In this document: positions 15,700 to 23,099 of the stretch, piece by piece | How positions within the stretch are numbered: the stretch's first letter is position 1 | Layout: each line of letters begins with the position of its first letter | Source of the DNA: a virus | Direction: 5' to 3' (one strand) | Length of the DNA stretch: 30,076 nucleotides | UHGV virus genome: UHGV-1385480 | Position numbers and translations under genes: made by a program | Notes under the pieces: generated by a model | Database searches by the model: none | What the model was told of the DNA's origin: nothing | What the model saw: the letters and a program-made list of their open reading frames with translations, nothing else

Positions 15700-18600
15700 T
15701 TATTTAGTTGCTTTCAGTTCGGCAATTTCTTTCTGTAATGCTTCGATCTGTGCTTTATATTTGGCGTCCATTTCCTGCATAGCCTTGATGATTAAAGCAT
15801 TGACAGCAGAGTTAGAAATAGTCTTGATTGCTTCTGGATTTTCTGGATCTTCGGTGGATTGAATACCTACTGCTTCCGGCAATACTTTTTCCAGATCCTG
15901 AGCAATAATACCTACTTCGCGTTTAATCACCGTGTCATCGGAAAGAGATTTAACTTTATCGTAGGTGTAGACTTTCAGTGAGTTTACTTTCTCTAATGCA
16001 CCGTCCTGTAATTCTTCCTTGTTAATCTTCAAACGGGAGTCAGAGCGAATGTAAACATCGTTAAAGCTACCGTTACGACCTGCGGTAAAGTCACCAGCAG
16101 CGTTAAAGTCAAAGTTAGTATCGTTAACATGCAGACGAACAAGAGCGTTACCGATAGTACCGCTAGGAACGTGTACACCCATTGCTGCAATGTGATATTT
16201 ACCCCAATGAGTAGCTTTCCAGATGTTATGAGCGGAATCGGTTGATTGAGGGCAATCAACTTGCAAGCCGGATGCACGATCGCGCCAACTAGACCAGCTA
16301 CCACCAGAAACGTTACCACGAATCAAACCTTTATCAGATCCGCCGACGCTACCAGATTCAAGATGAATCATCTTATCCGCAAGTTTCCACGTCTGGGCTT
16401 GTTTCTGACCACGGAAGCGAATAACACCAGCATCATCAGAATACATCAAACCTAGTTCTAATCCAGTTGGATCTCTAAACCAGATATGCTTATTACCAGT
16501 GCGACGAAATTCAATATCAGCACCGTTAAGCGTGATATTACCGCCAGTGTGAATTGCTTGAGGCTTAACAGTACCGTTGATGGCAAACTCAATTGCCGTA
16601 GTACCCGGACCGCCCGGACGTTGGGTATACCAATGCCAACCACTTTCATCACCACATTCTAATACTTGTTTACGACTATCGTTACCCCAAGCACGAATAT
16701 TAAAGCTGGATGTAGCTGTATTTTTACCCCAAGTAAACTTACCACCAACTTCAAGATCGCCTAAGAAGTTTGCTTTAAGAGCACCAGTACCCATCGCACG
16801 CTCTGTGCTAAAATGTCTACCTTGACTATCTTCTAGGTACAAAACGTTATCACGGGCATTATTACTATCACCCCAATGATTAAATCGAATATAATCACGA
16901 GATCCGCTTCTCCCAGCAGAGAAGGTTAAAAACCCTTTCTCGATATATGTATCGCCAGCAAATCGAGCAGCACGGCTATCTCTTTCGAGAACTAATGCGC
17001 CTTCGTTACCATCACCACCTAAAGTAACTTTACCGTTAGTCAAATCGTAAATGAATGGTCGGTTTCCGTTCCAACCACCAAATCTATCATTTTCGGCAGT
17101 AGACAACAGATAAACTTTACCACCATCATTTCGCCAGAATGCACCATACTTACCGTAAATCATACGGAATGCATCAGCGTTAGCGGAATAATATTGACCA
17201 TTGGTATATACAATTTTTGTTTTTCCTGTAGTCAAATTTACTTGTCCACTACCTTCCAAATCAAATGAGTTAGCACCAACATCATTACGCCACACAAAAC
17301 CATCACTAGTACCATCCGCATGACCGATATAACCACTACGTTGGTTTTTACCATCACGACGATCCCACCACGCCATATATGCAGCTTGACCAGTCTGGCG
17401 ATGTAAAGTCATCGCATTACCACTACCGTGCAATTCCATTTTACCAGTAATTACATATCCTTTATAATTACCCGGTATTGCACTATTAGAATCAATTCTA
17501 ATAACTTCTGTAGAATCTGTAGCACCGGTAGCAAGACGATATACAGCACCCTGAACGGTTTCATGCCAAACCATTTCGTTATAGTTGCTACGGAATTTAC
17601 GAATATATTTCCGTCCAGTACCTTTATCGTTACTCAAGTGAACAATGTCATAGCTGTTTTGTGTGTTATCATCAAAACTTAACACACCACGTTTATTTTC
17701 AGTATTAAAAAGAGTTACGTTGCGACCACCGATAACACCAACGGAAGGTTTAATTAACGTGGCTTCCGGCGTATCATAAACCGTCAAACTTACATAAACA
17801 GATTTCCCATATTCGACAATAACGTTATCGGTATAACGCTGATATTTCACGTAGATATCATAGTTATCACCGGAAGTATTGACAGCAAATACCTCAAAAT
17901 CTTTGTTTGTATTTCTACGGTATGCAATTACGTTAAGACCTTTAGGTCTATCGTTACCACTACGCAGAAGAATTTCTACTACGTCAACCTGATCATATGC
18001 CGTAACGTTGTAACCATTACCACCATGAATACGGAAAAACACACTACGCCCGTTTTGTGGAATTGTTGCGGTTGCCAATTTGAAATATGCAGATACGTTT
18101 TCGCTAGAATTGGGAACAGACATAACGACGTTTTTAACAAACATCTTATCAACTTCGGCTTTGGTGTATGCGCCAATCTCGCCAGGAGTCGGCTTATCAC
18201 CTTCGTGATACATCTTATAGCTAAAGTTCTTCTGTCCTTCTCTATCAAAACCATAGGTTTCAACACGAGATCCACCAGACGCATAACGGAAAGTAAATCC
18301 GCGACCGTGCGCTTTACCGGCAGAATGAGGAACATTAAGAGTTAGATCCATGAGTCCATCTTGACCATTGGTACGGAAAGCACCAAAGTAGTTAAGATCT
18401 CTCGCTGTCTGGTCTTCCAAATAGTTAGCTGTCTTGCTTAACAGATACCCACCATGCTTAGTATTGGTATTCTTCTTGATGTAAGCAGCATCGGCACTAC
18501 CTTCAATAGAATCAATTCGCTGGTTAGCTGCGGCAATTGCGGCATCGGCACTGGCCTTGTTATTTGCAACAGTTCTTTCAATGGCTGTCTTATTCGCAGA

Positions 18601-19230
18601 GACCGTACTAGTAAGATTGGTGATCTTCGTGTCCGCATCTTTCTTATTATCCGCTACCGTCTTTTCTATTGCTGATTTATTTGCTGCGACAGTATTCGTT
18701 AAGTTGGTAACGTTGGTATTCGTCTGATCAACTCGCGCATTAATATCTGTCTTGTTCTTGTTAATTGTCGCGTTGATAGTATCGCGGGTTGAAGTAATAG
18801 TCTGATTCAGTTCAGTCTTAGCAGCCGCCAGAGCGTTAGCCGCTTCGGTTTTATTGTTACCTACTGTGGTAGTCAAAGCATCAATTCGCTTGTTGGCTGC
18901 GGTATCGCCAGCAGTGATTGAAGCATTGAGAGTATCACGGGTAGAAGTGATAGTCTGATTAAGTTCAGCTTTAGCCGTAGCCAGATTATTAGCGGCTTCG
19001 GTTTTATTTGCTGAAATGACTTTATCTGTGTTGACCTTGTTGGTGTCTACTTTCGTATTCAGTTCAGCGTGTTTTTCTGGAGAAACACTAATTTGGACTA
19101 CGTTATTATTTTTATCTTTGGTGTAAATCACATGGTCCGCCAGTTGTAAGGCGATCTCGCCCTGTGATAATTGTTCCGGCGTTGGTTTTTTACCAGCCGT
19201 TTGTGTGCGTTTAAATTGGATCGACTGCAT
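15700..19230 (-). CDS. tail fibre protein with C-terminal intramolecular chaperone (peptidase S74-like) domain
   Basis: 1176 aa; N-terminal repeated Asn/Thr/Ala-rich segments; C-terminal ~114 aa starting SDSRLKINKEEL... ending in a coiled coil, matching the self-cleaving chaperone domain of endosialidase / L-shaped fibre proteins. Confidence 0.8.
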   Translation of the reverse strand: MQSIQFKRTQTAGKKPTPEQLSQGEIALQLADHVIYTKDKNNNVVQISVSPEKHAELNTKVDTNKVNTDKVISANKTEAANNLATAKAELNQTITSTRDTLNASITAGDTAANKRIDALTTTVGNNKTEAANALAAAKTELNQTITSTRDTINATINKNKTDINARVDQTNTNVTNLTNTVAANKSAIEKTVADNKKDADTKITNLTSTVSANKTAIERTVANNKASADAAIAAANQRIDSIEGSADAAYIKKNTNTKHGGYLLSKTANYLEDQTARDLNYFGAFRTNGQDGLMDLTLNVPHSAGKAHGRGFTFRYASGGSRVETYGFDREGQKNFSYKMYHEGDKPTPGEIGAYTKAEVDKMFVKNVVMSVPNSSENVSAYFKLATATIPQNGRSVFFRIHGGNGYNVTAYDQVDVVEILLRSGNDRPKGLNVIAYRRNTNKDFEVFAVNTSGDNYDIYVKYQRYTDNVIVEYGKSVYVSLTVYDTPEATLIKPSVGVIGGRNVTLFNTENKRGVLSFDDNTQNSYDIVHLSNDKGTGRKYIRKFRSNYNEMVWHETVQGAVYRLATGATDSTEVIRIDSNSAIPGNYKGYVITGKMELHGSGNAMTLHRQTGQAAYMAWWDRRDGKNQRSGYIGHADGTSDGFVWRNDVGANSFDLEGSGQVNLTTGKTKIVYTNGQYYSANADAFRMIYGKYGAFWRNDGGKVYLLSTAENDRFGGWNGNRPFIYDLTNGKVTLGGDGNEGALVLERDSRAARFAGDTYIEKGFLTFSAGRSGSRDYIRFNHWGDSNNARDNVLYLEDSQGRHFSTERAMGTGALKANFLGDLEVGGKFTWGKNTATSSFNIRAWGNDSRKQVLECGDESGWHWYTQRPGGPGTTAIEFAINGTVKPQAIHTGGNITLNGADIEFRRTGNKHIWFRDPTGLELGLMYSDDAGVIRFRGQKQAQTWKLADKMIHLESGSVGGSDKGLIRGNVSGGSWSSWRDRASGLQVDCPQSTDSAHNIWKATHWGKYHIAAMGVHVPSGTIGNALVRLHVNDTNFDFNAAGDFTAGRNGSFNDVYIRSDSRLKINKEELQDGALEKVNSLKVYTYDKVKSLSDDTVIKREVGIIAQDLEKVLPEAVGIQSTEDPENPEAIKTISNSAVNALIIKAMQEMDAKYKAQIEALQKEIAELKATK
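18540..19010 (-). repeat. imperfect tandem repeats in the tail fibre N-terminal shaft
   Basis: Protein repeats NKTEAAN(N/A)LA(T/A)AK(A/T)ELNQTITSTRDT and TNLT(N/S)TV(A/S)ANK(S/T)AIE(K/R)TVA; the underlying DNA blocks are visibly similar. Confidence 0.5.
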
Positions 19231-20878: not shown

Positions 20879-20906
20879 CAAAAAAGCCCCACCGTTAGGC
20901 AGGGCT
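20879..20906 (-). terminator. intrinsic terminator (copy B) after the capsid gene
   Basis: Minus-strand RNA AGCCCUGCC-UAAC-GGUGGGGCU followed by UUUUUU. Confidence 0.7.
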
Positions 20907-20911
20907 AATTA

Positions 20912-21040
20912 TTATTCTTTAGTTTTACGCTGTTTTTTAGCTGTGGCTTTCGCCTTAACCGTCTGGGATTCTTCTTCCGGTTCAGGAATCAGATTTTCTT
21001 CCCCCAAATCGGGGGAAGGTTCAGATGGTTCTACAGGAGT
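20912..21040 (-). other. in-frame 42-codon extension downstream of the capsid TGA (candidate readthrough product)
   Basis: Directly after TGA-A: TPVEPSEPSPDLGEENLIPEPEEESQTVKAKATAKKQRKTKE then TAA; no independent start. Confidence 0.4.
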
Positions 21041-23053
21041 TCATTCAGCGGAGATGTGAAGAACTTTCAGAGCTTCCGGCTGTGCTACAACGTAGTCCAA
21101 ATCTACAAAGATACGAGGCACTACCGCACCACGATCACGGTATGTAGTTAGATCCATATCCAGTTCCAGACCGCCCCACTCACCGATAGTAATACCGGAG
21201 AAGTCACCCAGAACGATGTGGTCTGCCGGAATAACGCCAGAAGTAACTACTTCGTAACCAGCCAGTTTGCCGTTTTCGATGATATAACCGGAAACGCCGT
21301 TATCTTTCAGGGTAGATTCCAGTTCAGCAGCAGTTGCACCGCTCATCGCAAACTTGATCGCCTGAGCAGGAACGCCAGCGTCAGTCAGTGCTGCAATTTC
21401 TTTCAGGAAGTCTTTATAAGAGAAAGCAGCTTTCTTGGTAACGCGGCTAGCGTCTACCAGTTGCTTAACCAGACCAGCCGGACCACGAGCATTTTCTTTA
21501 TCAGACAGAATCAGTTGTTCCAGTTTGATCCGAACAGATTTGTTAATGTGATCGGTGATCAGGGTAGCGATGCCCGGAACGGTTTTCAGCGACTGACGGC
21601 TGATCGGGTTGCCACCAGCAAAAGTTTTCGGAGACAGTTTCACGTTCGAAAATTCCGCATGTGACTCGGGGGCAGCGCCATTTTCGTCAACGAATCCGAA
21701 AGCGTCAACGCTGGATTTAGTCATTTTTGGAATAGCGGTCGGAGAAGTCAAGCCACTATAAACAGTCACCCCGAGGCGGCCTAAAACACTCTGAGGCAAC
21801 AGCATTTCGATGTAGGATTCAGTCATCAGTTTTTCGTCAGTGATAGCAACCAGATTAGCTTTGGTGTTGCCATCAGCAGCAGCACGCATAGCAGCAGCCG
21901 GAACGAATACAGAGCCACCACGAGCAGCACGACCACGCTGCATAGTTGCAGTAGCAGCCATTGCGGAATATTCAGCTTCGTTAGCGCCGAGCACGTCGCC
22001 ATCTACCAGGGAGCGGATTACGTTATTAAGATCGAAAGTTTTTTCCATGATTTGTTCCTTATTAATTTGTTCGTTATTACGTTGAGCATTGGTAATGTTA
22101 TTTAGTGCCTTAGTGCGGAATGCTTCCGGCGTAATTTCTTTATTTGCCAATGCGCGTTTAAATTCTTCATCGTCTTCGTTAATATTTAACTCGCGTGCAA
22201 TTTCGCGAATTTCTAATTCGTCTTCTTCGGAACGTTCAGCCACTTCCTCGGTTTTTTCTTCTTCAACCGGAGCAGCTTCACGTTCTTCTTTTACTTCTTC
22301 TGTTTCCCGAACAGTTGAACTATCATCATCAACACTTTCAGGATGTTCAGCGTCTTTTCCGTCTTCGAGATTTTCATCTTCTTTATTCTCTTCAACTTGG
22401 CGCTCTTGAGTTTCTTCAACTTCCGGTTCTTTATTTTCTTCTACCGGAGTTTCTTCAACCTGAGCGGATTCTTGTTCTTCTTTGATTTCTTCAATTTGTT
22501 CTTTAGTCATATCGCGTTTAGCCTCCAAATTAACTGTGATAGTATTTAGAGAGCGATTTAAACCGACCGAATCGTCCGCCGGGACCGTAACAAAACTTAA
22601 TTCGAAAGGAACAAACTTAGTAACAATCAATTGTCCTTTGGCATAATCGATGTGATATTCTTTAATGTCATAACCGACAGAAATTTTTTCCATCGTACCT
22701 TCAATGACTTTATTACGAATATCATTAGCCAAAGTGCCATGCTTAGAGAATCTAACGGTCGCACGGCCTACTTTATCCGCATCGATTCGAGCGTTACAAA
22801 CGACACCTAAATGATTATCGAAATTATGATTAAACAGCAACGGAGCGTTATTATTCAGACGAGACAGATCAACCGCTTCCGGTGTATGTACCAGAATTTC
22901 ATCTAATACCACCATTTCTTGATTTTGCTCATCCCAGAATTGGCGCTGATAAGGCTGTTCACTGGAGAAAGCAATTTCAAATTCGTATTGATCGTTATGC
23001 CCTTCGTTAATAACTCCACCGTAACCGTTAAGTTCGCGGCGAAATTTAAGCAT
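21041..23053 (-). CDS. prohead protease - acidic scaffold-like linker - HK97-fold major capsid protein, single fused ORF
   Basis: N-terminal ~170 aa with LFNHN...LG and ELSFVTVPADDSVGL motifs typical of HK97-type prohead proteases; ~160 aa Glu-rich low-complexity middle; C-terminal 335 aa with capsid-like composition; ends in TGA. Confidence 0.75.
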   Translation of the reverse strand: MLKFRRELNGYGGVINEGHNDQYEFEIAFSSEQPYQRQFWDEQNQEMVVLDEILVHTPEAVDLSRLNNNAPLLFNHNFDNHLGVVCNARIDADKVGRATVRFSKHGTLANDIRNKVIEGTMEKISVGYDIKEYHIDYAKGQLIVTKFVPFELSFVTVPADDSVGLNRSLNTITVNLEAKRDMTKEQIEEIKEEQESAQVEETPVEENKEPEVEETQERQVEENKEDENLEDGKDAEHPESVDDDSSTVRETEEVKEEREAAPVEEEKTEEVAERSEEDELEIREIARELNINEDDEEFKRALANKEITPEAFRTKALNNITNAQRNNEQINKEQIMEKTFDLNNVIRSLVDGDVLGANEAEYSAMAATATMQRGRAARGGSVFVPAAAMRAAADGNTKANLVAITDEKLMTESYIEMLLPQSVLGRLGVTVYSGLTSPTAIPKMTKSSVDAFGFVDENGAAPESHAEFSNVKLSPKTFAGGNPISRQSLKTVPGIATLITDHINKSVRIKLEQLILSDKENARGPAGLVKQLVDASRVTKKAAFSYKDFLKEIAALTDAGVPAQAIKFAMSGATAAELESTLKDNGVSGYIIENGKLAGYEVVTSGVIPADHIVLGDFSGITIGEWGGLELDMDLTTYRDRGAVVPRIFVDLDYVVAQPEALKVLHISAE

Positions 23054-23099
23054 TTAATCACCTTTAATTAATTGGGGGCATTGCGCCCCCCGTTGGTTA

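Follow-up and report, generated by a model that had tools for sequence, protein, structure and literature searches.

When the protease and the capsid protein of a phage are encoded by the same gene, does every capsid subunit carry a protease of its own into the prohead? This question is raised by the virus genome UHGV-1385480, a stretch of 30,076 nucleotides (hereafter the window), in which a protease, an acidic linker, a helical region similar to the HK97 delta domain and an HK97-fold capsid protein are all encoded by one open reading frame (ORF) on the minus strand (21041..23053). The usual interpretation of fused protease-scaffold-capsid genes is that each subunit has its own protease, which raises the further question of how ~15 MDa of extra protein fits into, and then leaves, a T=7 prohead. 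The initial annotation of the window had proposed that an ATG within the ORF could supply capsid protein alone. Based on sequence comparisons with relatives, we consider it probable that translation does initiate in vivo at this ATG, codon 336 of the ORF (M336), and that a protease-free capsid precursor would thereby be produced from a nested in-frame gene.

A conserved, probable internal start at codon 336

The candidate internal ribosome-binding site (RBS) occupies positions 22046..22061 on the minus strand and consists of a Shine-Dalgarno (SD) motif, TAAGGAA (22061-22055), a 6-nt spacer and the ATG of M336 (22048-22046). The in-frame ATG at 22048 with AAGGAA 6 nt upstream, to which the initial annotation had drawn attention, was confirmed, with AAGGAA at 22060..22055 in the codon context AAT AAG GAA CAA ATC ATG. 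The encoded protein begins MEKTFDL, and the product of this start is predicted to have the N-terminus (f)MEKTFDLNNVIR, a length of 335 aa and a mass of 35.4 kDa.

The RBS-like element is conserved at the nucleotide level. In all 217 protein clusters of the E. coli family, as well as in 31 distinct DNA sequences, both K332, always encoded by AAG, and M336 are invariant, and the three residues between them vary (EQI, DSK, ESK, EKN or ESI). Synonymous diversity within this E. coli clade was uninformative, as 46% of the codons are nucleotide-invariant. A second enterobacterial clade, 30-38% identical to the window protein and represented in Leclercia, Rouxiella, Phytobacter, Mangrovibacter, Escherichia sp. 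and many IMG/VR contigs, has AAG GA[T/A/C] at the same place, followed by 7-13 variable nucleotides and then ATG. The spacer residues in that clade include DDK, DDKK, EDIK, DNEN, DDNNI, EEIQ and others, and the lysine codon of the site is always AAG, compared with an AAA:AAG ratio of 444:122 elsewhere in those ORFs. K-E or K-D underlies the motif in most lineages. Further lineages encode it in different ways: as AAA GGA (K-G) in L086 and L161, as ACG GTG ATT in L083, as AAG GAA in Escherichia phage DCP80 and as AAA GGT GAT in L163, where it is of the SD type that matches the true start of the gene. In these five lineages, the ATG lies 6-16 codons ahead of the conserved capsid block. In a survey of 135 distinct ORFs, all 76 of those with at least 30% identity, each of which belongs to an enterobacterial prophage clade, had an ATG with an SD-like motif.

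To compare these occurrences with chance, nine lineages at ≤60% identity were used, in which synonymous sites are saturated, the fraction of identical codons being equal to the codon-usage expectation. An SD with a free energy (dG) of ≤ -5 kcal/mol was present at the site in 9/9 of these saturated lineages, whereas 2.45 were expected based on synonymous shuffling, and the probability of finding it in all nine was 5.5e-6. Within each ORF, the site ranks first or second among the 8-21 internal ATGs. The predicted accessibility of the RBS is above the median in nine of nine lineages; for M336 in the window, the predicted probability of being unpaired is 0.077, at the 96th percentile, compared with 0.0058 for the annotated start. 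Judged by these sequence comparisons, the combination of ATG and SD is present across the relatives more often than by chance, and the in-frame ATG with its RBS is what a nested in-frame start under selection would be expected to present.

A relative in which the two genes are separate

A metagenome contig (L159, SRR14039946_64995) has a split version of this arrangement. Like the window, it encodes an S78 protease and an acidic linker and has an RBS, in this case AAGGAG, at the same junction. Unlike the window, a TAA separates the two genes, the linker is Pro/Glu-rich, there is no conserved helical region and the capsid identity is only ~31%. The upstream gene in L159 comprises the protease C-terminus and the acidic linker and ends with TAA, after which the gene for the 345-aa capsid protein (P0248) starts at an ATG 8 nt after the SD, 12 residues ahead of the conserved block. 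The stop codon and the SD overlap (TAAGGAG) in the junction sequence cgcgaaTAAGGAGattcaaacATG; the window has ATAAGGAA at the equivalent junction.

The split arrangement, with its overlapping stop codon, lends some support to the view that the SD and ATG in the window are a decaying relic of a two-gene ancestor that became fused by loss of the stop codon. However, since synonymous sites are saturated across the lineages, a relic would not have been kept by chance, and in the absence of selection it would have been erased. According to an alternative view, the SD functions as a translational pause between domains, but a pause would give no reason for an in-frame ATG to be conserved at the distance of an RBS. 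We regard it as very improbable that either of these views accounts for the site.

Domain architecture of the fusion protein and the likely start of the mature capsid protein

The statement in the initial annotation that protease, acidic linker and capsid protein lie in one 670-codon frame agreed with both Pfam matches and residue composition, although the annotation had omitted that the frame is on the minus strand, as are its SD, its domains and the candidate internal starts. The ORF has an ATG start at 23053, encodes 670 aa (74.1 kDa) and ends with a stop codon at 21041-21043. The SD of its annotated start (AAGGTGAT, 23057..23064) has a dG of -10.8 kcal/mol against a 13-nt anti-SD sequence. 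The frame is uninterrupted in ~140 relative loci, as well as in the 217 E. coli/Shigella protein clusters. Structure predictions with AlphaFold2 (AF2) were derived from a diverse alignment of 20 sequences and had a mean predicted local distance difference test (pLDDT) score of 74.8; a prediction from a shallow E. coli alignment was uninformative (mean pLDDT of 31.7).

A Peptidase S78 (HK97-type) prohead protease domain was assigned to residues 21-167 (22553..22993) based on Pfam and AF2. PF04586 (Peptidase_S78) matches residues 40-162 with 41.6 bits (cut-off 21), and the AF2 model is beta-rich and confident across residues 21-167 (pLDDT 80-93). The protease motifs include H76 in LLFNH and S125 in ISVGY, and H76, S125 and E151 are invariant in an alignment of 20 diverse homologues. 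By analogy with what is known for HK97 gp4, we infer a catalytic role for these residues.

The domain is followed by an acidic low-complexity linker at residues 183-271 (22241..22507), assigned by composition and AF2. Aspartate and glutamate account for 44% of residues 183-290, and the pLDDT of <50 at residues 194-271 marks the linker as disordered. Its length and sequence differ between relatives, and it had no match in PHROG or NCBIfam.

AF2 and alignments identify residues 272-335 (22049..22240) as a conserved helical region, which would form the N-terminal half of a propeptide of the delta-like (scaffold-like) type. The model has helices at residues 276-288, 296-303 and 309-338 (pLDDT 72-87), the alignment consensus is ER..EI...G.S.E.FR, and stand-alone homologues of 410-440 aa start with this region. 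The C-terminal half of the propeptide would be the conserved block at residues 336-400 (21854..22048), which was delimited by homologue alignments and AF2; its predicted helices are at residues 342-351, 357-372 and 386-393, and in the mature shell it has probably been removed or is disordered. A low-confidence break at residues 400-411 then precedes a confident fold at residues 412-670. The HK97-fold capsid protein proper was assigned to residues 401-670 (21044..21853; ~28.7 kDa) based on Pfam, TIGR01554, PDB entry 8GTA and Foldseek. PF05065 (Phage_capsid) matches residues 414-666 with 88.5 bits (cut-off 24.2), and the best Foldseek matches were the capsids of 8GTA (phage R4C), RcGTA, D3 and HK97, each with a probability of 1.00.

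The initial annotation had placed the beginning of the capsid-like region exactly at 22048. This was correct to the extent that many homologue alignments begin at residues 336-339, with stand-alone homologues of 345-349 aa beginning 10-20 residues earlier, but the HK97 fold proper starts at around residue 400. Residue 11 of the 8GTA chain aligns by sequence to window residue 411 (E = 3.7e-25), as does position 121 of TIGR01554. The deposited 268-aa chain of 8GTA begins at residue 362 of the 629-aa R4C precursor, which is equivalent to approximately residue 401 in the window, and whether this start reflects cleavage or disorder is not stated in the R4C paper. Because of these two alignments and the break in the AF2 model, the mature capsid protein probably begins near residue 400, with its N-terminus expected at about residues 394-401, and not at residue 336, and M336 was rejected as the mature N-terminus. 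The models suggest that residues 272 to ~400 behave like the HK97 delta domain, in which case M336 would be in the middle of that domain, at the end of a helix.

Evidence for and against initiation at M336

Several of our observations weigh against a role for M336 as a start and favor an alternative in which only the polyprotein is produced. In that alternative there would be no internal initiation, every subunit would have a protease, and K-[DE]...M would be a protein-level motif for packing or recognition in the delta-like helix, the AAG codon being incidental. Consistent with this, [IV]-K-[DE] and the methionine could be constraints at the level of the protein, and M336 is at the end of the predicted helix 309-338 in the delta-like region rather than at a disordered boundary. 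As M336 is within this region, the short product would be without half of the putative scaffolding domain. In the window considered alone, the ORF has 9 SD-like 5-mers, with 8.8 expected from synonymous shuffling. It contains 12 internal ATGs, of which M182 and M336 are preceded by such a 5-mer at RBS distance, meaning that the pairs of SD and ATG are within chance. Elsewhere in the window ORF, K-[DE] occurs 12 times, each time with AAA as the lysine codon; this contrast with K332 favors the site, but it is only suggestive because the ORF does not generally avoid SD-like 5-mers. The dG of the M336 SD (-6.2) falls within the weakest quartile of the real starts of the prophage, which have a median of -8.1, and is well short of that of the gene's own start. 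In addition, the nine lineages were defined after the pattern had been seen, and a Fisher combination of the per-lineage shuffle p-values gives 0.018, which is much weaker than the all-nine product.

The distribution of the site also has clear boundaries. In 49/61 of the more distant ORFs, an ATG is absent within 20 codons, and most of the others are without an SD; in lineage L162 the methionine is present and the SD is absent. The same fusion exists without the site in R4C, ep3 and marine clades, and for R4C a T=7 capsid has been solved. Its absence from R4C and ep3 means that the fusion design can function without the site.

Nevertheless, we consider exclusive production of the polyprotein to be unlikely. 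A peptide motif does not explain a site that is made by K-E, K-D, K-G or T-V in different lineages, and AAGGA and ATG have persisted even though the spacer between them varies in both length and sequence. The excess of SDs in the saturated lineages and the use of the same junction as a true gene start in L159 also argue against it. The proposal of internal initiation in the initial annotation was thus strengthened by the retention of ATG and SD in 76/76 relatives, by the low probability of their joint occurrence in the saturated lineages and by the split relative; it required revision in that M336 is not the start of the mature capsid protein, a second candidate start had been overlooked, and in R4C and ep3 the fusion works without the site.

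A second candidate start at codon 182

The second candidate, M182 (22508..22526), consists of GGAGG (22526-22522), a spacer of 11 nt and an ATG (22510-22508), and is positioned directly after the protease domain. Its predicted product, comprising linker and capsid protein, has 489 aa and a mass of 53.4 kDa. With a dG of -9.3, the SD of M182 is the strongest internal SD of the ORF, and the combined shuffle p-value for the site is 0.0025. Equivalents were identified in several relatives. In the DCP80 clade there is a conserved post-protease methionine after AAGGA in three codon registers (AAG GAA, A AGG AAA and AA AGG A), in ep3 the protease region is followed by GAGGA, 7 nt and ATG, and in L161 the sites of the M336 and M182 types have its two best internal SDs.

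Given these features, it is conceivable that M182 is the functional start instead of M336, which would then be minor or silent. The resulting 53-kDa protein of linker, delta-like region and capsid protein would retain the whole delta-like domain and, in having all but the protease, would be the exact analogue of lambda Nu3 and of UL26.5 of herpes simplex virus (HSV). However, a spacing of 11 nt is long, a methionine is missing at this position from the second enterobacterial clade, 29/217 clusters have GGGGG in place of GGAGG, and M182 has been lost in two mosaic prophages, L156 and L157, in which M336 and its SD are retained. From these comparisons, M182 is a plausible site that has been kept less consistently than the M336 site, and we think it improbable that M182 is the functional start with M336 minor or silent. 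Initiation at M182 is in any case compatible with initiation at M336, and the two are not exclusive. A module of three tiers, in which M1 would be the start for protease-linker-capsid, M182 for linker-capsid and M336 for the capsid precursor, with the ratios set and the design kept by selection across the enterobacterial prophage clades, is a doubtful extension of our interpretation.

The mosaic prophages L156 (NZ_AP042682) and L157 (NZ_CP122876) have another protease allele with the same linker and capsid protein, with the breakpoint near residue 184. In both, a further gene, encoding 340 aa, separates the portal gene from the capsid gene, and the head-tail genes of L156 also include one for a GIY-YIG nuclease.

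Proposed mechanism and comparison to other nested genes

In the mechanism that we propose, whose inferred elements include initiation in vivo, the ratio of products, their co-assembly and the position of cleavage, translation of the late mRNA from 23053 would produce the 74-kDa polyprotein. TAAGGAA and the ATG at 22048 would function as a second RBS to produce the 35.4-kDa precursor, which would have the C-terminal half of the propeptide but neither protease nor linker and would have the architecture of the stand-alone capsid genes in related phages. The start at 22510 may add the 53.4-kDa form of linker and capsid protein. As long and short forms share the shell-forming domain, they would co-assemble on the portal, with the full-length copies carrying the protease covalently into the prohead and the short copies diluting the protease and reducing the packed mass. 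After assembly, the protease would cut near residue 400 and the N-terminal parts would be degraded or leave, so that a shell protein of ~29 kDa would be left.

There are precedents for nested genes of this type in lambda C/Nu3 (Shaw & Murialdo 1980, as described in PMC8508860), and in the nested protease and scaffold genes UL26/UL26.5 of HSV-1 and gp17/gp17.5 of HFTV1 (bioRxiv 10.64898/2026.09.13.751334). In each, as we propose for the window, a protease-first ORF has an in-frame start from which a protease-free protein with the same C-terminus is produced, and the copies with protease are a minority. The short form in those three systems has been shown experimentally, whereas in the window it is predicted from sequence. 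Their short product is a scaffold and the capsid protein is encoded by a separate gene; in the window, it is the capsid protein that forms the shared C-terminus. The proteases also differ, as that of lambda C is of the S49/ClpP-like type and that of the window is S78. An internal promoter, as in the case of HSV UL26.5, was also considered as a source of the short form. It was rejected, as sigma-70-like promoter matches were at chance level (4 found and 4.6 expected), with none immediately upstream of 22048.

HK97 gp4/gp5 resembles the window in having an S78 protease, the HK97 fold (Foldseek matches to 1OHG, 3E8K and 8FQK) and a helical propeptide before the N-arm, which in the window protein is predicted and probably removed. 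In HK97, however, the protease is encoded by a separate gene and recruited non-covalently, whereas in the window it is joined covalently to the capsid protein via the acidic linker of ~90 aa.

Relationship to known protease-capsid fusions

The fusion of protease, linker and capsid protein is an architecture that is already known and catalogued, and it is the candidate internal start of the M336 type that may be new. Among phage records, DCP80 has the most similar protein (43% identity), followed at 27-31% by the jilinviruses similar to ep3/ECO1230-10, phiHAP-1, Rhodobacter RcCronus, roseophage R4C and the Xanthomonas FoX phages, all of which have one ORF of ~600 aa. A megablast search of a phage collection with the ORF produced zero matches, its relatives there being detectable at the protein level only. 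When 1.84 billion representative proteins were searched with residues 291-670, the best 150 matches were mostly fusions of 560-760 aa; a profile search with a diverse profile returned only the near-identical E. coli family.

The NCBIfam model NF045541 ('prohead protease/major capsid protein fusion protein') matched the window protein at 126.2 bits and over residues 22-340 only, below its cut-off of 525, indicating that the window protein belongs to a different sequence family of the same design. PHROG 617 matches both halves of the protein (E = 1e-37 and 4e-47), and PHROG 4523 is annotated as 'major head and protease protein'. A 'protease-scaffold-capsid fusion' has been reported in small actinophages of clusters EE, AN, AM/AU and EL (PMC7302621, PMC5513430), and the same design in the Rhodobacter RcC phages (PMC8601537). 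The fusions represented by NF045541, PHROG 4523/617, the actinophages, RcC, R4C and ep3 have the same domain order as the window, in one ORF after a lambda-family portal gene. R4C and ep3, unlike the window, have no ATG with SD ahead of the capsid block. We found no description of an internal start in a protease-capsid fusion in the literature, the coverage of which was incomplete, such that absence is not proven.

Two of the related records are unusual in their context. The DCP80 record (L001, PQ671644.1) has a length of 141 kb and is classed as a T4-like Gaprivervirus, and at its left end (1-16 kb) there is a siphophage-type module of terminase, portal and fusion capsid genes; two phages may have been combined in this record by chimeric assembly. 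On the contig that encodes P0189 (Logan ERR4592246), a capsid homologue of 349 aa that stands alone, Phage_rep_O and DUF6475 genes come before it and neither a portal nor a protease gene is close by, a context that resembles a satellite or capsid-forming island more than the head module of a phage.

Prophage setting and neighboring elements

The window represents a ~35-kb prophage of E. coli and Shigella, and the ORF is a head-assembly gene of this temperate, siphophage-like prophage, in which no separate capsid gene was identified besides the fusion ORF. The gene is present in 53/5,426 complete E. coli genomes at 85-96% DNA identity, and >200 protein clusters have 88-98% identity. In one of these genomes, NZ_CP119011, the Prokaryotic Genome Annotation Pipeline (PGAP) has labeled it 'phage major capsid family protein'; there it has a lambda-family portal gene on one side and head-completion genes on the other, and the prophage is bounded by a large serine recombinase. 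Some copies of the gene have decayed (L158 NZ_CP195866, L003 NZ_CP124819, L036): insertion of IS1 has broken it into 'protease' and 'capsid' pseudogenes, the capsid end has been lost in a truncation associated with IS3, and a frameshift is present in one IMG/VR copy.

Upstream of the fusion gene, a GC-rich inverted repeat, GGGGGCATTGCGCCCCC (23073-23092), takes up most of the 46 nt that separate the portal stop codon from the fusion-gene start, and it may influence coupling or mRNA stability. Approximately 135 nt downstream of the ORF there is a strong terminator-like hairpin with a 9-bp stem and a T-run (20885..20906, minus strand). Between the ORF and this hairpin is an unannotated 31-aa ORF that starts with TTG (MGEENLIPEPEEESQTVKAKATAKKQRKTKE; 20912-21007, minus strand), and in NZ_CP119011 a 190-nt gap after the capsid gene was left empty by PGAP. 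Further downstream, a gene for a 1176-aa 'tail fiber domain-containing protein' (15700-19230, minus strand) is located between the head-completion and tail tube genes, which is an unusual position for a fiber gene.

Implications

For annotation and proteomics, our analysis implies that a 35-kDa species in prophages of this type need not be a cleavage product. The site also offers a clean way to change stoichiometry with the long protein unchanged, namely the synonymous substitution of AAG by AAA at K332. If the three-tier interpretation were true, protease, scaffold-like and shell functions would all come from a single gene that has their stoichiometry built in. If the internal start at M336 is indeed under selection, at least the enterobacterial members of this family would use a protease-free version of the protein from the same frame, as do lambda and the herpesviruses, and the nested-gene strategy would extend beyond scaffolds to the capsid protein itself.

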